64,000 bases of DNA from an uncultured Nitrososphaerota archaeon (GCA_963838925.1 CAWISW010000002.1:160001-224000); one strand, 5' to 3'; shown: positions 7,565-27,161, counted from the stretch's first letter. A program made the numbers and translations. The notes: generated by a model from the letters alone, not told the origin.

Positions 7565-7594
7565 GCGAGTCAAGTTGAGCGAGTCAAGTTGAGC
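7543..7594 (+). repeat. 14-bp tandem repeat CAAGTTGAGCGAGT x3.7
   Basis: Units 7543-7556, 7557-7570, 7571-7584, partial 7585-7594; spans the upstream stop (7562-7564) and downstream TTG start (7589). Confidence 0.95.
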
Positions 7595-10267
7595 AAATCC
7601 AACTCCGGCAAGATGTCGTCGTTCGCGAGCATCCACCTGGTGGGGCTGGGCGGCACCGGGACTAACGTGATCCAAGCACTCATCGAGAGCGACCGGTTCT
7701 TCAAGCTGCTTACGGCGGAGGACTTCAACATCGCGTGCCTCTCTATAGACGTTGCAGACGCCGACATCTCCAACCTCGTGAGCTCCTACAAGGCGACCCA
7801 GGCGAAGCTCGAGGCCGCGGGAGTCTCCGTCGACCGCCTGTGGGTCAGGGGCCTCAACATGAAGTTCAACACCCCCGAGTCTCTCTTCGAGTTCATGGGG
7901 AAGTACAACACATATCTCATGAAGGAGGGGATAGTCGCCACCAACTACAAGCCCTGGGTGCAGTCCTCGATGACCATCCCGCCTCTCGCGGGAGGCGTCG
8001 GGAGGATGAGGGCCCTGAGCAAGGCGGTCTATGCCCTGAACTACTACCACTACAGCGAGCTCAACAGCGCCATCTCGGTCTTCAAAGACCGGGTCCTCAC
8101 CTCAAAGTTCCAGCCGATAGTCGTCCTAGTCTTCGGGCTGGGCGGGGGCACAGGCAGCGGGATGGTCTTCGACTTTGCGAGGCACCTCCGCGCCAAGCTG
8201 GGGTCCTCGGTCCCGATAATGGGCCTCGCTATCCTTCCCAGCGCCGCCGACGACCTCTTGGCGAGAGGTCCTGCGCCCTACAACGCGCTGATGGAGGCAG
8301 AGCTCCTCTTCAACAGAAAGCTCAACGAGCAGGTCGCGAAGAAGTACGGGGCGGCATACACCAACCCCTTCAACTCCTTGTTCTTCGTCCCCCTCGACCC
8401 GGTGTACAACAACAGGAACAACCTGGTCACCGCGAAGAAGGAGCTCGACGAGTCTATCATAGACATCCTGAGCATGTTCATGCGTTTCGACCTCGCAGAC
8501 CTCCTCAGCAGGGTCGGGACCAACAACGACTTCGGTGCCAACTGGGCTCACACCCTCGCCTACCTGCGGATCCGGTACCCCGTCCAGGACTACATCGACT
8601 ACATGCACGAGTACCTCAAGCTGCTCGAGACCCTCGGCTCCTTCATGGACTCCAAGAAGGAAGCCCTCGTGACGATCAACGACGCGATGAAGAACAGGTT
8701 CGCCGCGCTCAAGAACCTCTACCGCAAGAACCTCATCCAGACGAACAACTACCGACCCGACTCCTTCGACTCCGAGGTCGAGGAGGTCATCAGGAGGGCG
8801 GGGAAGTTCGAGGCCGAGTTCAAGAAGCAGGTCAGGGGTCTCGAGGACTTCGCTCTGAACTACAACCAGCGGTGGAGCAAGGTGCTCCAGGCGATGGCCT
8901 TCGGGCCGGAGACCGTCGAGTACAGCGTCATCCAGGGTCTGACGCACTGGCACCAACAGATCTCCAACCTCGGAGCGAACTACGAGCAGTTCCTCAAGGA
9001 CATACCGCTCTACACCTCTGAGCTCGAGAACAGCATCACCGCTAGCAAGTTCCTCACGTCTAGCCAGATACGGCAGATCAGGAGCTACGTCAGCTTCGTC
9101 AACCTGGTCGCGGTGTCCCTCGATACGCTCAACCTCTACATCAGGGCGAAGGGCCTGGCCGACGAAGTGGCGGTACTCTACGCGAAGGACGAGAGCAAGG
9201 AGGGCAGGATGGCGGCGGCGAAGGGAGAGACGGACCTGCTGCCCCTGTACAAGGCCGCTGGGTACATCCTCAACCGCCCCGAGACCGAGATAAAGGTCTC
9301 CGACCAGTACATCCCCGGCATCAGGGTCGTCAAGAAGGGCCTGGACGACTCCTACAGGGAGGCCAGCGCCAGCCTGGAGTCGACGGAGAGGCTACTCGCG
9401 CAGAAGGAGCAGGACGTCGCGAGGCTGAGCAAGGAGATCGACAAGATCAAGCTCGACGTCAGCGGGAAGAAGAAGCTGATCAAGCGCACGCTCGACTCGC
9501 TGCAGAACGAGGTGGAGGCGGTGCGCGTCCAGATAGAGGGACAGAGGCAGGACCGCGACAAGCTGAGGGCGGACCTCGACAAGCTCACCGAGCTGGAGAA
9601 GGCCTTGGAGATCACATCGCCGTACAGGAAGATCCTCGCGAACGTCGTGAACAAGACCACGGAGCTCAACACGCTGATGAGCGGGATAACGAACACCGGC
9701 AGCTACTACGAGAGGGTCGTCGAGCTCAGCGAGGTGGAGCAGGTAAAGATAATGGAGAAGATCCTCCGCGAGGACGAGGAGAGCCTGAAGGGCGACTCCA
9801 TCCTGAAGGAGATAGTCGACAGGGAGAGGTTCCGGAGCATAGTCAAGAGCTACATCCGCATATTCAGCGTCCCCAACTACCCGGGGCTCTCAGACACCTA
9901 CCGGTCGGACCTGATATGGGCGACCGTCGGCATCCCGCCCGGCCTGTGGGACCAGGAGCTGCAAGGCGCGCTCTCGAGCACCCTCAACGTGTATTCGAGC
10001 GTCGAGGCCAGCAAGAGCATCTCCCTGCGGCAGATCCCCCAGATGGACCCCTGGACGATCACCTTCCTCGTAATCATGGCCAAGGCGAGGATCGACCAGA
10101 TAGAGAAGTTCCCGTCGATGAAGAACGACATGGAGGGGGTGCAAAAGTCTGAGAGGCTCCTCTTCAGGAGCTTCCTACTCGAGCAGGGACTGGCGAGCCT
10201 CGACGAGCTAATCGCCAAGTTCGAAGAGAGAAGGGCGGCACAGAACACCAAAGAAAGGGAGGTCTGA
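7589..10267 (+). CDS. Tubulin/FtsZ superfamily GTPase (Tubulin_2/FtsZ-like) with long coiled-coil insert
   Basis: T1 VGLGGTG, T3 GGVGRMR, T4 GLGGGTGSG, T5 AILP, T7-like FDLADL; heptad-rich K/E/L region around aa 590-700. Confidence 0.9.
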   Translation: MSKSNSGKMSSFASIHLVGLGGTGTNVIQALIESDRFFKLLTAEDFNIACLSIDVADADISNLVSSYKATQAKLEAAGVSVDRLWVRGLNMKFNTPESLFEFMGKYNTYLMKEGIVATNYKPWVQSSMTIPPLAGGVGRMRALSKAVYALNYYHYSELNSAISVFKDRVLTSKFQPIVVLVFGLGGGTGSGMVFDFARHLRAKLGSSVPIMGLAILPSAADDLLARGPAPYNALMEAELLFNRKLNEQVAKKYGAAYTNPFNSLFFVPLDPVYNNRNNLVTAKKELDESIIDILSMFMRFDLADLLSRVGTNNDFGANWAHTLAYLRIRYPVQDYIDYMHEYLKLLETLGSFMDSKKEALVTINDAMKNRFAALKNLYRKNLIQTNNYRPDSFDSEVEEVIRRAGKFEAEFKKQVRGLEDFALNYNQRWSKVLQAMAFGPETVEYSVIQGLTHWHQQISNLGANYEQFLKDIPLYTSELENSITASKFLTSSQIRQIRSYVSFVNLVAVSLDTLNLYIRAKGLADEVAVLYAKDESKEGRMAAAKGETDLLPLYKAAGYILNRPETEIKVSDQYIPGIRVVKKGLDDSYREASASLESTERLLAQKEQDVARLSKEIDKIKLDVSGKKKLIKRTLDSLQNEVEAVRVQIEGQRQDRDKLRADLDKLTELEKALEITSPYRKILANVVNKTTELNTLMSGITNTGSYYERVVELSEVEQVKIMEKILREDEESLKGDSILKEIVDRERFRSIVKSYIRIFSVPNYPGLSDTYRSDLIWATVGIPPGLWDQELQGALSSTLNVYSSVEASKSISLRQIPQMDPWTITFLVIMAKARIDQIEKFPSMKNDMEGVQKSERLLFRSFLLEQGLASLDELIAKFEERRAAQNTKEREV

Positions 10268-17360: not shown

Positions 17361-17502
17361 TTGTGAATCACGGTATATCTCATTCTCCTATTAAGACTTA
17401 GCAGTGATCGGTAGCGGACGAGGGCGGTATCGCGGACCGGCCCCAAACGCCTCAGGGACGTTATTCGCTTATTAACGGCAAGTCGGCTCGGTCCTCCGAG
17501 TC

Positions 17503-17614
17503 GGGCCCGTAGCTCAGAGGTTGGAAAACAACTGGGCAGTCTGGTCAGAGCGACCGGCTCATACCAGCAATGGGAGACACCGGTCGGTCGCCGGTCCGAA
17601 TCCGGCCGGGCCCA
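17503..17614 (+). tRNA. tRNA with CAT anticodon, probably tRNA-Ile2 (agmatidine type), with two introns: D-loop 15/16 (17518-17539) and canonical 37/38 (17564-17578)
   Basis: Spliced: GGGCCCGTAGCTCAG|TCTGGTCAGAGCGACCGGCTCATA|ACCGGTCGGTCGCCGGTCCGAATCCGGCCGGGCCCA folds as a cloverleaf; GGGCCC acceptor is typical of archaeal Ile rather than Met. Confidence 0.9.
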
Positions 17615-17796
17615 CTCTTTCTTCATCCCGGAACTGCCGCTTTGAATGTTGCCTCTTGCGCTAGTCTGTCCGAGCGGTGGTCATTGGGCCCATCACACCC
17701 TCCCTCGCACCGTTGTCATCAACGCGTCAAAAGATGAGCTTCCCGGCAAGCAACCGTTTTATCCACTCTGCGCCTCTCGCTGATTCGAAGCCCCAG

Positions 17797-18543
17797 ATGC
17801 GTCCAAAACTGCTCGTGGTCCAAAACGCGGAATGGGAGGGTCCGGGGTTAGTCGGTCTGCACGCACGCGCAGCCGGCGTGGAGATGGTGACGGCCGAGCT
17901 CTTCCGCGGGCCTCCCGGCGCCCACAAGATCCCTTTCGGCGATCTGGAGAGGGGGGCGTACTCCGCGGTCGTCGGCCTCGGGTCTCCTTCCACGGCGTAC
18001 CGTCCGGAGAGCAACCCAAACCACGACGAACTAGTCAGGCTCTTCAAGGTGATTCGGAAGCGCAAGATACCCTCGTTCAACATCTGCTACTCCATGCAGC
18101 TCTTCTCGCTCGTCCACGGCGGCGTGGTCATCAAGAACCCGGCTGGCAAGGAGGTGGGCTTCGGAGAGGTCCGACCGACGCAGGAGGGGAGGTCTGACCC
18201 CGTGGTCGGGCCTATAGGCCCGTACACAACCCTCCAGTGGCACAGCGACATCGTCGAGACGCTGCCCCCGGGCGCCGTGCACATCGCGTCGTCCAGGAAG
18301 ACGAGAAACCAGGTGGCCTCCCTCGATGGGATACACTACCTTGTTCAGGCAGACGGGCAGGCTGCCATCCCCGCGATGGTCAGGAGCTGGCTGAGGCACG
18401 ACTCGAAGTGGGCGACCCAGGGGACGGGCATCAGGGCTGTCGAGCTCATACGCGAGGCCGTCGAGTACGAGGCGTACTTCAGGAACACTTTCCTGAGAAT
18501 CTTCGGAAACTTCCTCGCCCAGGTCCTCCCGCCCCAGCGCTGA
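17797..18543 (+). CDS. Class I glutamine amidotransferase-like protein (divergent)
   Basis: EGPG, NICYSMQL nucleophile elbow, QWHSD; QFHPE replaced by QADGQ; start moved to ATG 17797. Confidence 0.8.
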   Translation: MRPKLLVVQNAEWEGPGLVGLHARAAGVEMVTAELFRGPPGAHKIPFGDLERGAYSAVVGLGSPSTAYRPESNPNHDELVRLFKVIRKRKIPSFNICYSMQLFSLVHGGVVIKNPAGKEVGFGEVRPTQEGRSDPVVGPIGPYTTLQWHSDIVETLPPGAVHIASSRKTRNQVASLDGIHYLVQADGQAAIPAMVRSWLRHDSKWATQGTGIRAVELIREAVEYEAYFRNTFLRIFGNFLAQVLPPQR

Positions 18544-18566
18544 GGCGGAACGCACGAAGGCGGCGG

Positions 18567-19007
18567 CTAGGGCGACTTGTTCAGGTCCTCGAACCGGCTC
18601 ACGTGATGGTGGACTATCTTCCAAACGTCGCCGAACTTGCCGAGGACCATCGTCACCCTCGACCGCCCGCCCACCGTCGAGCCTTCGAAGGAGTAGTCGT
18701 TCACGAAGACACCCTTGTAGCTCAGGTAGAACGTCGCCACCGCCATGAACCCCACGACGTCGATGCGCAGGTCGTCTATCTTGTACTCGTAGTCCGATAT
18801 GTTGGCGAACCTCGCCTGCTCGTACATGAACGCGTCGTCAGAGTTCTGCCGCGTGTAGGGAGGGGACTCGTCGAACTTTGTGAAGTACTGGGACGGGGCA
18901 AAGAACGCAGACAGGTTCGTGATGTCCTTCGTCTTCCCGACCTCGAAGTAGGCCGTTATCAGGGCGGTCACCTCCCTCCTCGCCTGATCTACCTGGCGCG
19001 ACTCCAC
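18567..19007 (-). CDS. NTF2/SnoaL-like protein
   Basis: C-terminal RVTMVL...WKIVHHHVS. Confidence 0.85.
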   Translation of the reverse strand: MESRQVDQARREVTALITAYFEVGKTKDITNLSAFFAPSQYFTKFDESPPYTRQNSDDAFMYEQARFANISDYEYKIDDLRIDVVGFMAVATFYLSYKGVFVNDYSFEGSTVGGRSRVTMVLGKFGDVWKIVHHHVSRFEDLNKSP

Positions 19008-19061
19008 GGGCGCGCTTTGTCAAGCCATTAGATAAGCTGAGGAATCCCGGCCATGGCCGGC

Positions 19062-19247
19062 CTATTCGCGGCCTAGGAGCTCGAAGAAGGACGGGTGCAG
19101 CCCGATCCTGGCCAACTCCTCCCTCGCCTTGTCGGCGGTTTCGGCGACGACCACTATGGTGAGGGTCTCTGTCAGCTCGCTCCGAAACCTGTATTCAGAG
19201 GTTGCTGCGCGCGGGACAGAAGGGTCTCCCAGCTGGTTCGCTTGCAA
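19062..19247 (-). CDS. Small hypothetical protein
   Basis: 61-aa ORF co-oriented with neighbours. Confidence 0.35.
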   Translation of the reverse strand: MQANQLGDPSVPRAATSEYRFRSELTETLTIVVVAETADKAREELARIGLHPSFFELLGRE

Positions 19248-19300
19248 ATGCCTTCCAGCGATGGCCCCGCTCCCGCCGGATATGTGACGCTCCTCACAGG

Positions 19301-19705
19301 TTAGGGATTATCTGCCTTTGGGGCCTCGCGCCTGGCAATCCCGAAGGCGTCACGCGCTCGCAGCACAATCCTCTCTATCATTGGGAGGTTTGCGACCGGG
19401 CCGTGGACCTCGACGAAGCTCCCCTCTCGGAGCTCGTACACGGGAAGGTTCGCGCCTAGCGCGTGCTCGACCTCCTTCCTAACGCCCTCTGTGACGTAGC
19501 CATGTGACCTCGAGAAGACCATGCAGTCGCACCCGTCCAAGACCCCGAGGTAGTACTCTGTCTCTTTCCCGGGCTCGGGATTCGACTGAAGCGCGCTCGG
19601 GTCGACTATCTCGCACCCTGAGAACCGCCTCTCGATGAGGGAGATCTCTCTCCTCTCCGCGGCCGTCCCGTAGAGCTTGATCGGGTGGGAGTAGAAGACC
19701 TTCAA
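19301..19705 (-). CDS. Nucleoside 2-deoxyribosyltransferase-like fold protein
   Basis: KVFYSHP...CDCMVF...GVRKEVEHAL...PVY. Confidence 0.6.
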   Translation of the reverse strand: MKVFYSHPIKLYGTAAERREISLIERRFSGCEIVDPSALQSNPEPGKETEYYLGVLDGCDCMVFSRSHGYVTEGVRKEVEHALGANLPVYELREGSFVEVHGPVANLPMIERIVLRARDAFGIARREAPKADNP

Positions 19706-19727
19706 GCTCGCGACCCATCCTCCAAGG

Positions 19728-20585
19728 TCAATTGAGGGCGACCTGGCCCGGCCTCTGTACTGGAAAGTGCGCCTCGAGCTCAGCCCGTTCGTTCGGAGTG
19801 AGCCGCCAGCCGCTCGCGCCCAGGTTCTCCCTCACGTGTGCGGGATTCGAGGCCCTGGGGATGGGAAAGACGTTGGGCGTGGAGGCCAGCCAGTTGAGCG
19901 AGACCTGGGCGCTGGTCTTCGACGTCTGCCTGCATACCTCCCGCGTCTTCGCCTCCCCTCCTGCGAGCCGCCCGTGCCCAAGCGGGTAGTAAGCGAGCAC
20001 CGCGATGCCGTTCCTCTGACAGTAGGGAACCAGATCATCCTCTGGGCCTCTGTGGACGAGGCTGTAGTTGACCTGGACTGAGGATATCTCGGACCTCTTA
20101 AGGGAGGAGTTCGCCTCGGCGAGCTCCTTCAACGAGAAGTTGCTGACCCCAATCGACAAGATCTTTCCGCTCGCCATCAGCTCCTCCATCGCTCCCATCG
20201 TCTCGGAGATGGGGACGCTCGCGTTCGGAAAGTGCACCTGGTAGAGGTCGACGTAAGAGAGCTCGAGCCTCCTAAGGCTCCTCTCGAGGGCGGCGAGCAG
20301 GTCGTCCCTCCTTAGGTGGTCAAGCCACACCTTCGTTGCGATGAAGAGCTCGTCCCTCCTCCTCCCCTTGATGGCTTTCGCGACCAGGGATTCTGACTCG
20401 TAGGCCTCCGCCGAGTCGATCAAGTTCATGCCTCCCTCCAGCCCCGCGACGAGGGCCCTCACTTTGGTCGAAGCGCCCGCCCTCCATCCGTGCTTTGCGA
20501 GCCGTATCCAAGGCTTGTCGTAGTAGGTGCCCATGCCGATCTCGGAGACTCTCGGACCTGCCTTTCCGAATTGCTTCAGCTCCAA
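19728..20585 (-). CDS. Aldo/keto reductase
   Basis: IGMGT, DSAEAY, IATKV, DLYQVH, IGVSNF, IPRAS. Confidence 0.95.
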   Translation of the reverse strand: MELKQFGKAGPRVSEIGMGTYYDKPWIRLAKHGWRAGASTKVRALVAGLEGGMNLIDSAEAYESESLVAKAIKGRRRDELFIATKVWLDHLRRDDLLAALERSLRRLELSYVDLYQVHFPNASVPISETMGAMEELMASGKILSIGVSNFSLKELAEANSSLKRSEISSVQVNYSLVHRGPEDDLVPYCQRNGIAVLAYYPLGHGRLAGGEAKTREVCRQTSKTSAQVSLNWLASTPNVFPIPRASNPAHVRENLGASGWRLTPNERAELEAHFPVQRPGQVALN

Positions 20586-20642
20586 GTTGCTACGCCTCCC
20601 CTAGGCGCCTTGGGGGCATGACGAGGCCGGTTCCGTGGCTCA

Positions 20643-21608
20643 TCATGGCAACTTCAGCGACGCAGGGCCCTTCGACGCGATTACTGCATCCTGGCTCGAG
20701 CCGTGGCTGGGGCTCCCTCCAAGGTGGTACGACTCCAGCTTGTCCGACTCCGGGGTTATCCCTGACCAGGTACCGTGCCTGATAGGCTCGACAATCGACA
20801 GGCCGCTCTTGGCGACGAGGTCTCGCACGTAGCTCTCTGGTTGCGCGATGAAGTGCGCCGGGTCGTCCAGTGTCCGCACCTGAAAATCGCCGTACTGGTA
20901 GACTAGGTTCGGCGTAGTGAGGCCAGCTCGCACCGCGGGGAGGGTGGACTCGCTGAAGAGGCAGAAGGTCGCGAAGGCTATTCCTCCTGGCTTCAGGACG
21001 CGCGCAGTCTCGGACATGTAGTTGGCCGCCTCCGCCGGCAGCATGTGCGTATACACCGACCCGGCGAAGGCAAAGTCGAAGGTGTCGTCATCATACGGGA
21101 ACATCAGCCGGCTCGCGTCGGCACCTCCAGACGGGTTGTACCTCTGGCTGAATGTGCCCGTAGACCTGAAGCGGAAGTTGGGGAACCTCGGAGTGATCGC
21201 CTGCTGGCACCACTCGACCGGCTTCTTCGCCGCGTCGAACCCCTCGTAGGCGGCATTCGGGGATAGATACTTTGTCAGTGCGGCGGCTACCCTTCCGCAG
21301 CCGCAGCCGATGTCGAGGAACTTCGCGTCCTTCTGAAGCCCGGCGAGCTCCCTGAAGGCTGCCACGTTCCTCTCCCCAGTCATCCTGTAGAGCCGGGGGT
21401 CGAGGAACGGGCCGATGTGCAGCCTTATCCTGAGGGGAGGGGTGAGATTGTCCCTGACCCCTGACGCCTTCTCTCCAAGGTTGGTCATTCCGTCAAAGGC
21501 CGACGCCACTGCAGGGACTGCCGACGGCGGGACCATCCTCTTCGCGTAGCCGATCATGTAACCCGCGACCTTCGAGCTGGTCTCAGCGAGGTGTGTGGCA
21601 GACGTCAT
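20643..21608 (-). CDS. Class I SAM-dependent methyltransferase
   Basis: LDIGCGCGR, SVYTHM, RVLKPGG. Confidence 0.9.
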   Translation of the reverse strand: MTSATHLAETSSKVAGYMIGYAKRMVPPSAVPAVASAFDGMTNLGEKASGVRDNLTPPLRIRLHIGPFLDPRLYRMTGERNVAAFRELAGLQKDAKFLDIGCGCGRVAAALTKYLSPNAAYEGFDAAKKPVEWCQQAITPRFPNFRFRSTGTFSQRYNPSGGADASRLMFPYDDDTFDFAFAGSVYTHMLPAEAANYMSETARVLKPGGIAFATFCLFSESTLPAVRAGLTTPNLVYQYGDFQVRTLDDPAHFIAQPESYVRDLVAKSGLSIVEPIRHGTWSGITPESDKLESYHLGGSPSHGSSQDAVIASKGPASLKLP

Positions 21609-22408
21609 CTATCCACCAGGTCTATGATTTGACCGAAGGAACGCCCGCACGCCGCGCATCGCCTTTCGTGAATCTCCCCTCCGCACAAGCATTTCACGTA
21701 AGGCGCGTTCCTCCCTCCGCTCTTCCTGACGCGGTATCGGGCGAACAGCATGGACTTCGCGGGCCACAGGCGTGAAGTCTTGAGGTCTATCGTGGCGAGG
21801 GGCGAGAGCCTCTCGACCTTCCGTCCGAGCCTGTTGTCGAAGGCGCCGACCCCGAGGACCTCCACCCGCTCTAGCCCGGGGTGCCTGTAGCGGCTCAACG
21901 GCGTCGGGTATATCCTGTGGCCCTCGGGGCTGACCTTGACTTGGCCGTTTGCCCCATGGCCTTTGTCAATCTCGTTGGCTACTCCGAGGACAAACGTCCC
22001 TCCGTCCCTCGCGACTCTCACGATCTCGGCGAGGAGCGCGTCGGGGTCGGGTACGTGGTGGATGACCCTGACCAGGGCCACGAAGTCGAAGACGCTGTCG
22101 TCGAACGGTAGCCTCTCCAGGGTGCTCCTGACCAGGGTGGTCCTCTCGAGCCTTGACGAGGCTCTGCGAAGGTTGCTCAGAGAGTAGTCCAACATGAACA
22201 TCTGCCCCACTCGCCTTTCGATTTCCTGGGTGAGCCTCCCGAACCCGCCTCCCAGCTCGACCCCGGTCTCCCCCGCCGCCCAGCGCGACACGATCTCCCT
22301 CTCGGCTCGGTCCTCGATGCTTCTCCCTCGCCAGACGGTGGAGTAGTCGTACCTCTCGTAGTCGGGAATCTCGCTCCTCAGCTCTGTCGCGGCGCCCAAG
22401 GCGAACAC
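21605..22408 (-). CDS. Class I SAM-dependent methyltransferase with C-terminal Zn ribbon
   Basis: ELGGGFGR, LPFDD, RVIHH; CLCGG...CAACG. Confidence 0.9.
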   Translation of the reverse strand: MFALGAATELRSEIPDYERYDYSTVWRGRSIEDRAEREIVSRWAAGETGVELGGGFGRLTQEIERRVGQMFMLDYSLSNLRRASSRLERTTLVRSTLERLPFDDSVFDFVALVRVIHHVPDPDALLAEIVRVARDGGTFVLGVANEIDKGHGANGQVKVSPEGHRIYPTPLSRYRHPGLERVEVLGVGAFDNRLGRKVERLSPLATIDLKTSRLWPAKSMLFARYRVRKSGGRNAPYVKCLCGGEIHERRCAACGRSFGQIIDLVDR

Positions 22409-22409
22409 C

Positions 22410-23388
22410 TCAAGCAGACGGGGCGCGCCAGCCGCCCTTCAGCCGCCGATACATACTCCCGAGTTCCAGGTACCTGCGAGAGACGAACTCCAGGTGCCCA
22501 GGCCCCATGTTCGTCAAGAATAGGTCGTCCCGCCTGCCGTCCTTGGCCAGCCTCCTGTTCCGAGCCCATGCCTTGAGCGATACGAATGAACCTAGCGTGA
22601 GGAAGAGCCAGGAGTTCACGACCTTGGATCCCATGTCGGAGTGCAGGTCCCCGCCTTTGTGCGAGCCCGCCTCCCTCAACCTTCTCTCATAGAGGCTCGG
22701 AAAGTACGACTTCATCCACGACGCCCTCTCAAGGATCGGGTAGTAGGCGTCGCCCTCGGAGATCACCTTCGCGGTGAGCGAGTCCCTCGCGAACAGGGCG
22801 TCGTGCGGTCTGGTGAGCGCGTCTTTAGCCATGCGCTCGTCCATCATGAAGCTGAAGCAGAACGGCGCTGCGCGGTTCCTTGTCAAGGAGTAGATCCGGG
22901 CGAGGATGAAGGACTTGAGCATGAACGCCCACATCCCGTTTGTCTTCGTAATGCAGTAGAGGTCGATGTCGTCGTCCTCGGCAGCCGAGAGGTAGGAGCT
23001 AGTCCCGGCCACCGCCACGAAGACGGCGTCCTTGCTCAGCGGTCCGGTGAAGTCCCTCGCTCTCTCGAGGTTTGCTATCGCGCGCCGCCTCCTCCTGCCT
23101 TCCTCCAGGACTGCTTCCGCGCGACTGGCAGGGGCTGAGCCGCGTTGCCTCAGGAGCACAAGGCCTGACTCGACCAAGACCCTGGAGGAGAGCCAGTCGT
23201 CTGAAGAGACTCGCCTCTTCGACTTCCTCCGCGGTCGCGTCGATTGCGAGGAGGTCTACGAGGTCATCCAGGGAGAGCAGGCCGCCTGCTGCCGCTGCAA
23301 TCCTGCAGTATGCGTCCACCGCCTCCCTCTGCTTTTCGTCCAGCGGGGCTGTGGATTGCCGTCCGCTTGACTCTACCAGGGCTGTCAT
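22410..23388 (-). pseudogene. Nucleotidyltransferase-like protein split by a frameshift near 23211
   Basis: ORF 22999-23388 reads ...EEVEEA; dropping one base continues VSSDDWLSSRVLVESGL into ORF 22410-23177, which carries VAGTSSY...DDIDLY. Confidence 0.7.
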
Positions 23389-23527
23389 CCCCGGTTAGAA
23401 ATTATGTTCATAGGATGGATATAACCCAATCCCTTACGGGTTAGGTTGGAGTCTCCCCTCGTCACCGCGTGCGCCGTACCGGCCGAATCGGCCTAAACCT
23501 AAATCCTGACCAATCCACCGCCTGGCG

Positions 23528-24433
23528 ATGATGAACGCAGTCCCTGACGATGCCACGTCTCGCGTCCAGAGGAACACGGCGGTGATGCGCGGGTGGATCG
23601 ACGCGCACAACCGTCAGGACGTGGACGGCGCGCTCGTCTACTTCGACAAAGACATCGAGATCGAGGAGGTCCCGACGGGCGTGAGGTACAGGGGGATCGA
23701 CGCGATCAAGGAGATGGCCAGGGTGGCATACGGAGCTCAGGGTCACAAGGAGATGGTGAACCTGTTTGCGAGCGAGGATTGGGCGTGCGTGGAATACGTC
23801 GCGAAGGCCAAGCTGTCGGGAGCCGCGGGCATCTCCGGGCAGACCATCGTGGGAGATGTGAAGGCAGGCGTGAACGCCGCGTCTGGCAAGCAAGAGGTCG
23901 AGATGAAGGTGTGCTACCTCGCCCACTTCAACGCCGAGGGCAGGATAGACCGCGTCCGTGAGTACTACGACCTGCTGAGCGTGATGACCCAACTTGGAGT
24001 TGATGCGAAGGGCGTCGGTCGCGAGGGGGCTGCCCGCTCCTCAGAGCCAGACGCGCAAGAGTCCGAACGCACGCAGCCGGGAGCCGCGAGAGCGCCAGGG
24101 ACACAGGAGAGCTTCCCACGCTGCATCGAGGATCTCCGCAAGAAGTTCAGCGACCCGGCGGTCAAGGAATCGCTCGAGGGCTTCAGCCAGACCCTGCAGG
24201 TCTCGCTCACCGACCTGGGTGAGAACTATGTCTTCACCATCAAGAACGGGAAGCTGACGAAGGTGGACAAGAGGAACCTCCCTGACGCTGGCATAGTGGT
24301 AACCGTCACCAGCTCGGTGTTCGAGGGCATTCTGAACGGGACCTCGAATCCCATGATGGCCTACCTGAAGGGCAAGTTCAAGATGAAGGGGGCGAGGGAT
24401 GATCTGATGCGGCTGCAGAAGATAATGGGGTGA
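23528..24433 (+). CDS. SnoaL-like (NTF2) domain fused to SCP2 sterol-carrier domain
   Basis: N-term WIDAHNRQD...GRIDRVREYYD; C-term NPMMAYLKGKFKMKG. Confidence 0.85.
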   Translation: MMNAVPDDATSRVQRNTAVMRGWIDAHNRQDVDGALVYFDKDIEIEEVPTGVRYRGIDAIKEMARVAYGAQGHKEMVNLFASEDWACVEYVAKAKLSGAAGISGQTIVGDVKAGVNAASGKQEVEMKVCYLAHFNAEGRIDRVREYYDLLSVMTQLGVDAKGVGREGAARSSEPDAQESERTQPGAARAPGTQESFPRCIEDLRKKFSDPAVKESLEGFSQTLQVSLTDLGENYVFTIKNGKLTKVDKRNLPDAGIVVTVTSSVFEGILNGTSNPMMAYLKGKFKMKGARDDLMRLQKIMG

Positions 24434-24452
24434 AGGCGCGCCCAGCTCGGTG

Positions 24453-25406
24453 TCACTCGAGCCGGAGGCGAACGCCCAGGCGCCTTGAGAGGTTCTCGAG
24501 GTCCTGGGCGACGTAGAAGAACGCCATCCAGCTCCACTTGCCCCAGCGCCTGATGCCCTCCTGCTTCACCTTCTCTATCGCTTCCCTCCTGTCCTTGGGC
24601 TGCTTCCCGAAGAAGAGCAGCCCGAAGACGTCGACCGACCACGCGTCGATGGGGAAGCCTCCGTGTGGGTTGATGATGTCGGCGGCGTAGTCCCCTACCC
24701 CAGGCAACTCGACCAGCTTCTCCTTCGCCTTGTCAGGCGGCATCCCCATGATCTCCTGCATGTCAGGAAACCCAGATTCTACCATCTTCGCCGAAGCGAC
24801 GATGTACTTCGCCCTGTATCCTAGCTTGCATCGCTTCGCAAACGATCTGACGTCGAGCTTCGCGATCCTTGTGGCCGTCGGCTGAAGCACGACCTCCTTT
24901 CCGTCGAACCTGATGGTCTCCCCGTACTCTCTGTCGATGGCCTCCATCATCTCGGTGCTCCTCTTCAGCCTCGCCATCTGGAGGCATATGCTCAGGATGA
25001 CCGAGTTGAAGAGAGAGACGGCCTGGGTGTCGTGCATGCCGTACAGGCTCTCGACCACGTGCTTCAGGATCCGGTCCTTCAAGGCGAAGTCGTAGAACTC
25101 CTTCAGGTCTTTGTCTGCTCCGAGACAGACCTTGAGCGTGAGGCGCAGCCTCTCCGCCTCGCTCTCGGAGATCTTTCCCCCTGCATAGGCGCCGACCTGC
25201 ACCCGCGGCCTCTCCAAGGTGCCCATGGACTGAATCTTCAGCCCTACCGGGCTCCCTCCGAAGCGGATGCCCGACCATAGCGTCTCGTCATTGAAGACCT
25301 CATCGGAGGTGAACAAGTCCCAGCCGGCGGGCTTTCTCACCGTGAGGCGGAAGTTAAACGGGGGCACAGGCACTATCTCGAACTCCGCTCTGCGCCGCAG
25401 TTCCAC
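24453..25406 (-). CDS. HhH-GPD DNA glycosylase (AlkA/OGG1-like)
   Basis: LGYRAKY, LVELPGVGDYAAD, FPIDAW. Confidence 0.85.
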   Translation of the reverse strand: MELRRRAEFEIVPVPPFNFRLTVRKPAGWDLFTSDEVFNDETLWSGIRFGGSPVGLKIQSMGTLERPRVQVGAYAGGKISESEAERLRLTLKVCLGADKDLKEFYDFALKDRILKHVVESLYGMHDTQAVSLFNSVILSICLQMARLKRSTEMMEAIDREYGETIRFDGKEVVLQPTATRIAKLDVRSFAKRCKLGYRAKYIVASAKMVESGFPDMQEIMGMPPDKAKEKLVELPGVGDYAADIINPHGGFPIDAWSVDVFGLLFFGKQPKDRREAIEKVKQEGIRRWGKWSWMAFFYVAQDLENLSRRLGVRLRLE

Positions 25407-25472
25407 CGCTAGCTCCTCCCGGGAGACGAGTCCAATGAGACGCGATGCTTGTCAGTTAGAGCTGGCGCAGTC

Positions 25473-25868
25473 CTACTTCTTGCGCTTGGTGGTCCGCCGC
25501 GGGGCCGCCGTGGGCTCAAAGAGCGCGATGAGATTCCCCTCGGGGTCTGCTCCGATATAGGACCACCCTATCGTGGGAATCTCCATTTTCTCCATGATCT
25601 CCCTTCCGCCCGCCTTCTTGAAGGCCACGATGTGCTTGTCGATGTCGTCTACGCCGATGTAGTTCCTCGGAACGTCGGTCGCGCCGGTCCTCTTGTACAT
25701 CCCTCCAGGCACGCTCTTCCCTCTCGGTCCCGTGGAGATGTTCCAATAGTCCATGTCGGAAATCTGGGTCTTCTTGAACTTCCATCCGAAGACGTCCGAG
25801 TAGAACTTCGACAGTTTGCCGAGGTCGTTGGCGGGTATCTCAAAGTGGACAATAGTCTTGATGACCAT
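25473..25868 (-). CDS. VOC/glyoxalase family protein
   Basis: IVHFEIPAND...FYSDVFGW...DPEGN. Confidence 0.9.
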   Translation of the reverse strand: MVIKTIVHFEIPANDLGKLSKFYSDVFGWKFKKTQISDMDYWNISTGPRGKSVPGGMYKRTGATDVPRNYIGVDDIDKHIVAFKKAGGREIMEKMEIPTIGWSYIGADPEGNLIALFEPTAAPRRTTKRKK

Positions 25869-26005
25869 GAGGACAGGGACTGGGACGCCTTATTTTAGGC
25901 CTCTGAAGGACTGCTCGAGGCGCCCGCGGCGTTTCCGGACTAGGTCAACCGGCCCTCTTTCGCGTCTGGAACCTCTACGCGGCCGTCGGCTTTAGAAAGA
26001 TGAAG

Positions 26006-26123
26006 CGGCGTCGGACCGACTCGAACGGTCGACCAACAGGTGTTTGCAGTGCTTTACGCACTTTAACAGCCTGCTGCTCTACCATGCTGCCCAGTTGTTT
26101 TCCAACTTCTGAGCTACGACGCC
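26006..26123 (-). tRNA. tRNA-Asn(GTT) with two introns: D-loop 15/16 (26087-26108) and canonical 37/38 (26042-26063)
   Basis: Spliced: GGCGTCGTAGCTCAG|CATGGTAGAGCAGCAGGCTGTTA|ACCTGTTGGTCGACCGTTCGAGTCGGTCCGACGCCG folds as a cloverleaf. Confidence 0.92.
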
Positions 26124-26303
26124 AGACTTCGTGCGCGCCTTCGACGGGCACGCTATATGAAATTAACTATCCTCGATGTGAAAACATAGCAGGGCAGGGA
26201 GGAGCAAGTCGAGGTCCATGGAATACTACAAGTACTTCTGGCCATGGAGCAACTGCCACGCCGTGATGGTCGTGAGAGTCATCGGGGGTTACTTGGTTCA
26301 GAT

Positions 26304-27161
26304 ATGAAAGTCCAAAAAATCTCCGGAAAGGTTCACGCCAGGATAGCCTCAGGCGATTCCATCTACGAAGGGTGGGGAGCAAACCAGGGCTTCGTCACGA
26401 CCAGCGTGGGGGCGGTGGTCATCGACACGGGTTTCACCGCAATCTCCGCAAAGGCCCTCTTGCGGGACATGCGGTCGTCCGGCTCGGCGCCGGTAAGGCT
26501 GATAGTCAACACACACGATCACTCAGACCACGTCTTTGGGAACTCCGTCTTCGACGAGGACTCGCCCTTGATCTTGGCCCATCCCAACTGCAGAGCCAGG
26601 CTCCTAGAACTCGGCAACGAGCGGATTCGCGGATATCGGGCGTTCGACGAGCGGCTGAAGAACGACCTTACCGGACTCCGCCTGACTCCGCCGCAGGTCA
26701 CCTACGAGGACGACCTGGAACTGAGCATCGGGCAGACTACTTTCCGCTTCATCCATCCAAACAAAGGCGCGCACACCAGCGGAGACACGATGGTGCTCCT
26801 GCCTGACGAGAAGGTTCTCTTCGCGGGCGACCTACTCTGGGTGGGCTACCATCCCAATCTCGAGGACGCGGACTTTGACGGCTGGCTGCACGAACTTGAC
26901 GCCATCTCTAGGATGAAGGTCGACCGAATCATCCCCGGCCACGGAAGGGTCGCAGACAAGAGCAGCATCGCTCCGCTGGCCGCATACCTGCGCGAGTTTG
27001 ACGCTAGGCTGGGAAAGCTCGCGCGAGAAGGCGTCCCCAAAGCGAAGGTCGCCCAGCAGATGGAGATTCCAGGGTCGGAGGAGTGGAGCCTGAAGGATTT
27101 CGTACAGCGCAACGTGGAAATCGTCTACGACAGGTATTTGGCACGCGAATCGCCAGCTTGA
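26304..27161 (+). CDS. MBL-fold metallo-hydrolase
   Basis: THDHSDH, AHTSGD, AGD, PGHG; start moved to ATG 26304. Confidence 0.9.
   Translation: MKVQKISGKVHARIASGDSIYEGWGANQGFVTTSVGAVVIDTGFTAISAKALLRDMRSSGSAPVRLIVNTHDHSDHVFGNSVFDEDSPLILAHPNCRARLLELGNERIRGYRAFDERLKNDLTGLRLTPPQVTYEDDLELSIGQTTFRFIHPNKGAHTSGDTMVLLPDEKVLFAGDLLWVGYHPNLEDADFDGWLHELDAISRMKVDRIIPGHGRVADKSSIAPLAAYLREFDARLGKLAREGVPKAKVAQQMEIPGSEEWSLKDFVQRNVEIVYDRYLARESPA

Follow-up and report, generated by a model that had tools for sequence, protein, structure and literature searches.

A D-loop intron shared by two neighbouring tRNA genes of a soil archaeon: sequence evidence for recent copying at an old intron position

Introduction

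How do two tRNAs of different identity come to carry nearly the same intron at the same position? The question is raised by a stretch of DNA of 64,000 nucleotides (nt), referred to here as the window, from an uncultured Nitrososphaerota archaeon (GCA_963838925.1, CAWISW010000002.1:160001-224000), in which a tRNA gene with the anticodon CAT and a tRNA-Asn(GTT) gene are both interrupted in the D-loop by a 22-nt insert. The window's own genome, named G000, is a metagenome-assembled genome (MAG) of 1.84 Mb in 3 contigs, 87% complete. Its lineage belongs to the Nitrososphaerales, Thaumarchaeota group I.1c, and is Gagatemarchaeaceae-like, not a member of the Thermoproteales; TopoVI-B is 83% identical to that of a Candidatus Gagatemarchaeum stordalenia relative. 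The reading that we regard as probable is that two real tRNA genes carry introns of a relaxed bulge-helix-bulge (BHB) form, and that the tRNA(CAT) intron was recently copied into the tRNA-Asn gene, with short-patch non-allelic gene conversion as the most likely route.

Two interrupted tRNA genes with a common D-loop intron

The two genes and their introns are located in the window as follows.

17503..17614, + strand: tRNA(CAT) gene, elongator type, 112 nt, two introns, 75 nt once spliced in silico (RF00005 47.1 bits, model 1-71; ARAGORN after insert removal)
17518..17539, + strand: D-loop intron of tRNA(CAT), 22 nt at position 15/16, AGGTTGGAAAACAACTGGGCAG (sequence reading, in-silico splicing, covariation over 26 introns of relatives)
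17564..17578, + strand: canonical 37/38 intron of tRNA(CAT), 15 nt, CCAGCAATGGGAGAC (sequence; ARAGORN i(40,15) after removal of the D-loop insert)
26006..26123, - strand: tRNA-Asn(GTT) gene, 118 nt, two introns, 74 nt once spliced in silico (RF00005 44.5 bits, model 1-71; ARAGORN after insert removal; synteny as in relatives)
26087..26108, - strand: D-loop intron of tRNA-Asn, 22 nt at position 15/16, AAGTTGGAAAACAACTGGGCAG, read as a copy of the tRNA(CAT) intron (relatives have an AGGCAT-type intron or none at the site)
26042..26063, - strand: canonical 37/38 intron of tRNA-Asn, 22 nt, with a boundary that slides by 1 nt (sequence; ARAGORN i(39,22); orthologous in G020, G008, G007 and G012)

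With slashes at the intron ends, the tRNA(CAT) gene starts on the + strand as GGGCCCGTAGCTCAG/AGGTTGGAAAACAACTGGGCAG/TCTGG... and has its anticodon at 17560-17562, and the tRNA-Asn gene starts on the - strand (26123-26006) as GGCGTCGTAGCTCAG/AAGTTGGAAAACAACTGGGCAG/CATGG..., with the anticodon GTT at 26067-26065. Both inserts follow tRNA position 15 and are identical at 21 of 22 positions, the lone difference, at intron nt 2, being G versus A. No relationship is seen between the canonical 37/38 introns (15 versus 22 nt). Two copies of the 20-mer GTTGGAAAACAACTGGGCAG are present in the window where chance predicts 0.01, a count of at least two being reached in none of 100 shuffles, and with up to 3 mismatches these are the sole two sites in the 1.84-Mb genome. 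When relatives were scanned with 3 mismatches, 6 matches other than its own were obtained, 2 of them in tRNAs, and the reversed-pattern control gave 8. An exact search in metagenomes returned 13 loci, all from one unrelated conserved coding context and none in a tRNA, and brought in no closer relatives.

Neither gene is called by ARAGORN on the genome, by default or with introns allowed (31 genes in the genome in the latter mode), and both are missed by an Rfam scan at the gathering threshold with default filters; the RF00005 scores given above come from a more permissive Infernal genome scan. In-silico removal of the 22-nt insert alone makes ARAGORN call both genes, versus none when unspliced, and removal of both introns yields cloverleaves of 75 nt (CAT) and 74 nt (Asn). 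Because ARAGORN and the default Rfam scan miss such genes, tRNA counts used for MAG quality grading in this family are probably underestimates. In two tRNA-Asn orthologues that are devoid of the 15/16 intron (genomes G010 and G014), the sequence reads GTAGCTCAG/CATGGTAGAGC, which is exactly the predicted spliced junction. The tRNA(CAT) has a G1-C72 pair, and its anticodon stem is without GGG/CCC, so that it is of the elongator and not the initiator type; it would be either tRNA-Ile2, as the earlier note labelled it, or elongator tRNA-Met. A search of the 87%-complete genome for a third CAT tRNA that might tell the two apart found none, the sole other CAT tRNA being initiator-like. Both loci are real tRNA genes, and the inserts are supported as archaeal protein-spliced (BHB-type) introns, their splicing being predicted from the sequence and from the comparison of junctions.

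Similar interruptions occur elsewhere in the same genome. The tRNA-Ile(GAT) gene at C3:568417-568515, outside the window, is interrupted at 15/16 by a similarly designed 24-nt intron, AGTCAAAATTCTCCTGACGAGCAG, whose hairpin is unrelated, and several further tRNA candidates look D-loop-interrupted, including the initiator-like CAT tRNA at C3:390091-390187.

The splice motif and the enzymes predicted to process it

In both genes, exon nt G10-C13 (GCTC) pair with intron nt 17-20 (GGGC), A14 and G15 with the following nucleotide (AG/N) make up the 5' bulge, and intron nt 2-6 pair with nt 12-16. The tRNA(CAT) intron thus consists of a bulge nucleotide, a 5-bp hairpin with a G.U closing pair and the loop GAAAA, the GGGC strand that pairs with the exon GCTC, and a final AG. 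Both cuts lie two nt 3' of the 4-bp central helix, at AG/N on each strand. The strict hBHBh' form (two 3-nt bulges, flanking helices) is not attained, since the second cut has no possible outer helix on its 3' side, and the motif is therefore of the relaxed HBh' form.

Covariation was analysed on 26 distinct 22-nt introns of relatives, aligned without gaps. The HBh' model pairs 94.9% of cells (91.3% in helix 1), with compensatory changes in 4 of the 5 pairs of the inner helix (35 cells with both sides changed), and its covariation score of 0.438 versus 0.167 for shuffled alignments was reached by 0 of 500 shuffles. The same design extends to all 79 distinct introns, whatever their length: 3-4 of the 4 central pairs with GCTC form in every one, AG stands at the 3' end in 62, and the end-anchored hairpin measures on average 3.28 bp (CAT) and 4.92 bp (Asn) versus 0.64 and 0.51 bp after shuffling. 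The family survey, with its 79 introns from one position in two genes, constitutes natural covariation evidence for a relaxed motif at 15/16, and this covariation supports the proposal that the inserts fold as HBh'. By free energy a 6-bp GCUCAG/CUGGGC helix would be preferred (-11.7 versus -8.9 kcal/mol), but it shows no covariation (0.091 versus 0.095) and was not retained as the conserved fold.

Two paralogues of the splicing endonuclease EndA are encoded in the genome, outside the window. The 190-residue alpha candidate matches crenarchaeal catalytic subunits (3p1z_B, 9.6e-42) and keeps the Tyr, His and Lys motifs; its K45 aligns with K44 of Aeropyrum pernix, the loop lysine held responsible for broad EndA specificity in the accessible part of PMC5829648. 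In the second EndA (195 residues), the Tyr is present and the catalytic His is replaced, as expected of a structural subunit, and this beta candidate is nearer in sequence to the Methanopyrus kandleri and Methanocaldococcus jannaschii chains than to crenarchaeal beta subunits. An alpha2beta2 EndA is reported for Thaumarchaeota in the available text of PMC4090602. The genome is thus predicted to encode a broad-specificity (alpha-beta)2-type EndA, which, with its specificity-loop lysine, would cut the insert, and the RtcB ligase, also encoded, would join the exons.

Much of this had been proposed in an earlier note on this DNA. The two tRNAs with a near-identical D-loop intron after position 15 are confirmed by direct reading and by the RF00005 matches, as are the unrelated canonical introns; the BHB-like motif that it drew is upheld by the covariation across relatives; the broad-specificity endonuclease that it called for has its counterpart in the alpha and beta EndA subunits typed by sequence; and its warning that standard callers may miss both genes proved right for ARAGORN and the default Rfam scan.

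An old intron position in a family of soil archaea

The position was searched in relatives with a pattern that admits an insert of any sequence, 12-42 nt long, flanked by GTAGCTCAG and GGT(N)AGAGC. The pattern is found in 73 of 97 family genomes (0 for the reversed-pattern control), and a hand tally of the 113 matches attributes 60 to tRNA(CAT) (59 genomes), 44 to tRNA-Asn (43 genomes) and 9 to Lys or Thr tRNAs. Across the order, it occurs in 55 of 74 family genomes versus 3 of 226 genomes from 19 other families. The CAT and Asn tRNA genes adjoin across the family, 0.6-8.5 kb apart; in the window they are convergent, 8.4 kb apart, in conserved synteny. Since the pattern is common in the family and rare in other families of the order, and the two genes are neighbours, the 15/16 intron position is ancestral to the family in both tRNAs.

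Several relatives depart from this arrangement. The tRNA-Asn of G008, G007, G012, G009, G018, G006 and G016 has an additional intron, located in the D-stem on its 3' strand (~23/24), so that a 74-nt tRNA may be interrupted by up to three introns. In G014 (locus L048, from 9058), the tRNA-Asn gene has no 15/16 intron and a 21-nt insert of the same design, AGGTGGGAAACCACCGGGGAG, lies between 43 and 44; the intron may have been relocated within the gene. In G012 (L190:12053-12070), an 18-nt copy of the 5' end of an intron-less tRNA-Asn, GGCGTCGTAGCTCAGCAT, is followed by ~640 nt of other DNA and then by the complete intron-bearing gene (0.66 kb); its appearance is that of an att-type duplication, left behind when an element aimed at the intron-free form integrated. 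G077 has two CAT tRNA genes (L080 and L081) whose exons are identical and whose introns differ, one of them identical to the G036 gene (L076), which suggests a duplicate or bin contamination.

Probable donor, recipient and timing of the copy

A tree built on the TopoVI A+B DNA of 19 genomes of the genus groups G000 with G012, G020, G009, G008, G018, G014 and G006 (support 100/100). The CAT intron is of one 22-23-nt type in all 8 genomes of this clade, NAGT[CT]..loop..ACTG[GA]GCAN, and the nine other genomes of the genus with a CAT match have a short intron type, as in other genera. The Asn intron is distributed differently. In G000 it is of the type AAGTTGGAAAACAAC..., and within the clade a CAT-like Asn intron is found in G000 and G020 only; an AGGCA-type intron is present in 5 of the 8 clade genomes (G012, G009, G018, G008 and G006, that is, 5 of the 7 closest relatives) and in five genomes outside the clade (G016, G002, G022, G004 and G007). 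The Asn 15/16 site, occupied in 43 of the 97 family genomes, is empty in G014, a clade member, and in G010. The exons, the T-arm, the canonical-intron end (...GCAAAC, common to the relatives' Asn genes) and the syntenic place of the G000 tRNA-Asn gene match those of its relatives, and the D-loop intron alone is foreign. Because the closest relatives keep a different Asn intron and the clade shares the CAT type, parsimony designates the tRNA(CAT) intron as the donor and the tRNA-Asn gene as the probable recipient. Horizontal transfer of the whole tRNA-Asn gene from the other large genus, in which 21/22 look-alikes exist (G099 and G104), was considered and rejected, as the gene agrees with its own genus in exons, T-arm, canonical intron and synteny.

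The identity of the two introns was set against that of introns taken from the retrieved loci, which give 42 within-genome and 2214 between-genome CAT-versus-Asn pairs. The within-genome identity has a median of 0.52, with G000 highest (21/22) and G020 second (20/28). Between genomes, 0 of 2214 pairs reach 0.95 or 21/22 (0 of 377 with the CAT introns of the clade only) and 4 reach 0.90 (20/22), these four being CAT introns of the window's clade paired with Asn introns of another genus. Such cross-genus pairs were rejected as a sign of transfer, since by a rough estimate ~14 of the 22 positions are fixed by design.

Terminal branches in the clade measure 0.13-0.22 substitutions per site, and the flanking genes are 66-83% identical to those of relatives. 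One difference in 22 nt is far below the expectation for two such branches, which places the copying, as far as sequence divergence can date it, within the terminal branch of G000, after its split from all sampled relatives. Relations within the clade are star-like: the grouping of G000 with G020 has a support of 49/93, is absent from a second tree and has an approximately unbiased test value (p-AU) of 0.497. Both G020 introns have GAGC where both G000 introns have GGGC, so that a separate or repeated event would have taken place in G020; the data point to a similar copying there, older or separate. The earlier note had proposed a recent intron spread or gene conversion. Recent copying is retained, and spread to a new site is not, as 15/16 is occupied family-wide in both tRNAs. 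Equal conservation across distant relatives, which the note had put forward as the mark of an ancient intron, is found for the position and not for the sequence, orthologous introns differing widely. By these comparisons, the position is ancient and the sequence identity alone recent.

Routes by which the intron may have been copied

In the mechanism that we propose, the 15/16 introns of both tRNAs are ancestral, and the hairpin of each gene would normally be free to evolve on its own. What would then have been copied into the tRNA-Asn gene is the hairpin of the tRNA(CAT) intron together with its central strand; there the copy either overwrote the resident intron or refilled a recently emptied site. 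The exchange would have taken place at the DNA level, by short-patch non-allelic gene conversion between convergent genes, with the common exon CGTAGCTCAG as its seed, joined by the common intron ends if the site held an intron; a later A to G substitution at intron nt 2 of the CAT copy would account for 21/22. The stretches involved are delimited by a single blastn high-scoring segment pair.

17508..17539, + strand: 32-nt stretch made of the 10 exon nt CGTAGCTCAG and the intron, gene nt 6-37; maximal conversion tract
26087..26118, - strand: partner 32-nt stretch in the tRNA-Asn gene

The two stretches are alike at 31 of 32 positions (96.9%), and the 10 exon nt upstream of the intron are shared. 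Gene conversion is favoured because of this identical exon context, the intron ends shared if the site was occupied, the convergent genes at 8.4 kb, and the lack of a detectable reverse transcriptase. Several features of gene conversion are present: paralogues alike, orthologues different, donor and recipient in one genome, and a shared flank. Among the 39 tRNA candidates of the genome, a list that is incomplete, this pair is the only cross-gene match that includes intron sequence; the event is therefore isolated and is not a large-scale transposition.

Several observations weigh against the proposed copying. The tract, 19-32 nt long, ends within 2 nt of the 3' junction, and no exon difference was co-converted; the nearest ones are found 11 nt before the intron on the 5' side and immediately after it on the 3' side. 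Beyond the 3' junction the two genes have little homology (first TC versus CA, then TGGT). A tract that stops so near the splice junction is also compatible with an RNA-guided, intron-precise process. The second D-arm intron of 5 of the 8 clade members is missing in G000, G020 and G014, which fits loss followed by regain. With ~14 of 22 positions fixed by design, again as a rough estimate, unrelated pairs do reach 20/22 (4 of 2214). Finally, the direction of copying is read by parsimony, and two genomes outside the clade, G011 and G001, have a 28-nt Asn intron of the TAGTTG...CAACT type.

The alternative that survives best, though we consider it unlikely, is an RNA-guided intron swap or true transposition, in which the CAT intron, excised or not, was joined into the Asn pre-tRNA at the BHB-compatible 15/16 site by reversed EndA/RtcB chemistry or mis-ligation and fixed via cDNA, or was inserted into an Asn gene earlier emptied of its D-arm introns. 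The precise 3' limit of the tract and the D-arm introns missing from G000 and G020 speak for it, as do the site that can be emptied precisely (G010 and G014), the same-design insert at 43/44 of the G014 tRNA-Asn that has no 15/16 intron, and the published reading of transposition for Thermoproteales, as it stands in the accessible part of PMC4090602. It is countered by a search for the reverse transcriptase domain PF00078 in the 87%-complete genome, which found none, by the single cross-gene match among the tRNA candidates, which gives no sign of active copying, and by the exon context and spacing, which favour plain recombination. A more specific form is improbable in our view: an exchange that is intron-precise and guided by the splice motif and not by DNA homology, a foreign intron entering another pre-tRNA by exchange at the same BHB-compatible junction and becoming fixed in the genome, on separate occasions in G000 and in G020. 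If true, it would make the family a natural system in which to catch a still unknown mechanism of archaeal tRNA-intron movement.

Copying in the reverse direction appears more doubtful still. Here an AAGTTG-type Asn intron, as found in some other genera and in longer form in G011 and G001, would have overwritten the CAT intron in the G000/G020 lineage. In its favour, at a site where GTCG/CGAC or GTCA stands in the six other clade members, the CAT introns of G000 and G020 share a T-A pair (GTTG/CAAC), and the Asn introns of G099 and G104, from another genus, are identical at 21 of 22 positions to that of G000. However, this direction leaves unexplained why the Asn intron would have changed from the AGGCAT type, present in 5 of the 8 clade members and in 5 outgroup genomes, and the G000 and G020 CAT introns are just one compensatory pair and loop changes away from the clade type. 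The cross-genus look-alikes, moreover, stand at the level expected from the roughly estimated ~14 fixed positions, and their exons differ (CGTGG, AATTGG).

Convergence, that is, a likeness due only to pairing with the same exon (GCTCAG) and forming a short hairpin, is very hard to sustain. The central strand, the end dinucleotide and the first nucleotide are constrained in all 79 introns, and even unrelated pairs come as close as 20/22. Yet 13 hairpin nt are free to vary, as testified by 23 and 12 distinct stem strands and many loops, and 12 of these 13 are identical here; G000 ranks first among the 42 within-genome pairs at an identity that no between-genome pair attains, and the nearest relatives have an Asn intron of another type. 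Last, an assembly error that duplicated the stretch, or an insert kept in the mature tRNA as an enlarged D-loop, is scarcely credible: the genome is indeed a MAG, but the copies, on a single contig, differ in their exons and in their flanks, both loci are covered by public contigs from two runs (one matches the window at variable sites, and the runs may include the source sample), the splice motif covaries family-wide, and the insert is precisely absent in G010 and G014.

Features around the two genes and related populations

Upstream of each tRNA gene lies an A/T-rich box that, from its sequence, could serve as an archaeal promoter element.

17468..17475, + strand: A/T-rich box CTTATTAA, possible archaeal TATA box, 28-35 nt upstream of the 5' end of tRNA(CAT)
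26153..26160, - strand: A/T-rich box TCATATAG, possible TATA box, 30-37 nt upstream of the 5' end of tRNA-Asn

Of the 8.4 kb that separate the tRNA genes, three stretches, 18800-21600, 23200-24400 and 25600-26400 in the window, are unmatched at the DNA level in the corresponding syntenic regions of eight relatives; the gene content between the tRNAs is therefore variable. At 7589-10267 (+ strand), an open reading frame (ORF) of 892 residues, of which the 220 N-terminal ones match Tubulin_2 (PF13809, 6.8e-16), is followed by three ORFs with no Pfam match. In G020 (L050), the TopoVI-B gene is split over two reading frames near residue 132-137, by a frameshift or an assembly error.

Four public DNA runs were compared with the window and gave no joints, variant contigs only. 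In the soil runs X1, X2 and X4, contigs with other flanks cover 17494-17546 and carry a CAT tRNA D-loop intron that differs at 2-5 sites, including an A at the site where the two introns of the window differ. In the same runs, other contigs span the whole tRNA-Asn gene (26000-26126) with no listed difference. These variant contigs indicate that related populations coexist in these soils.

Comparison with known systems

The copying of a single intron from tRNA(CAT) into tRNA-Asn is a known kind of event in a lineage without an earlier report: literature searches returned no paper on tRNA-intron copying in Gagatemarchaeaceae, and the word 'intron' is absent from the accessible text of the family paper (PMC10640624). 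The case is polarised and roughly dated, with an identifiable donor, recipient, ancestral state and branch, which is rare for archaeal tRNA introns. It also illustrates that identical introns in different tRNAs need not mean a gain at a new site, and that introns turn over fast, by sequence change, loss and the acquisition of extra introns, in a mesophilic soil lineage outside the Thermoproteales.

Concerted evolution and short-patch gene conversion between dispersed tRNA genes offer the nearest parallel for the proposed route. There, as here, paralogous stretches of one genome resemble each other more than orthologues from different genomes do, and the partners are neighbouring genes. Unlike in that process, the partners here are tRNAs that differ in identity, and what was converted is in essence just the intron (19-32 nt).

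At the splice site, the two introns resemble the non-canonical HBh' substrates of the A. pernix EndA, an enzyme with the Crenarchaea-specific loop, as described in the available portion of PMC5829648, with a central 4-bp helix, one proper bulge, an inner helix and no outer helix at the 3' cut. The enzyme predicted here is likewise similar to the A. pernix (alpha-beta)2 EndA, with a loop lysine in alpha (K45/K44) and a beta subunit without the catalytic His, cleavage being predicted from sequence only in the present case. Unlike the crenarchaeal beta subunit, the one encoded here is full length (195 residues) and closer to the M. kandleri and M. jannaschii chains.

In the Asgard archaea, the accessible part of a preprint (10.64898/2026.10.13.758758) describes heavily interrupted tRNA genes with almost no copying between tRNA types (1.5% at 80% identity). 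The D-arm introns missed by standard callers are a point in common with the Asgard genes as characterized there; unlike in Asgard archaea, one clear case of copying is found here, in another phylum.

The closest precedent for the introns themselves is in the Thermoproteales, where, in the sections of PMC4090602 that could be consulted, near-identical BHB-type introns across tRNAs of different identity in one genome are read as intron transposition, and where, by the same part of the preprint, 28.3% of intervening sequences fall into cross-type families at an identity of at least 80% (10.64898/2026.10.13.758758). The analogy, also drawn by the earlier note, holds for the presence of related introns in different tRNAs, which in both lineages can be read as DNA-level copying limited by a BHB-compatible junction, and fails for the scale, a single pair among 39 candidates being found here. 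In addition, unlike in the Thermoproteales, the host lineage is one of mesophilic soil Nitrososphaerales, and the intron sits at the same, ancestrally occupied position in both tRNAs, pointing to replacement or refilling and not to the colonisation of new sites.

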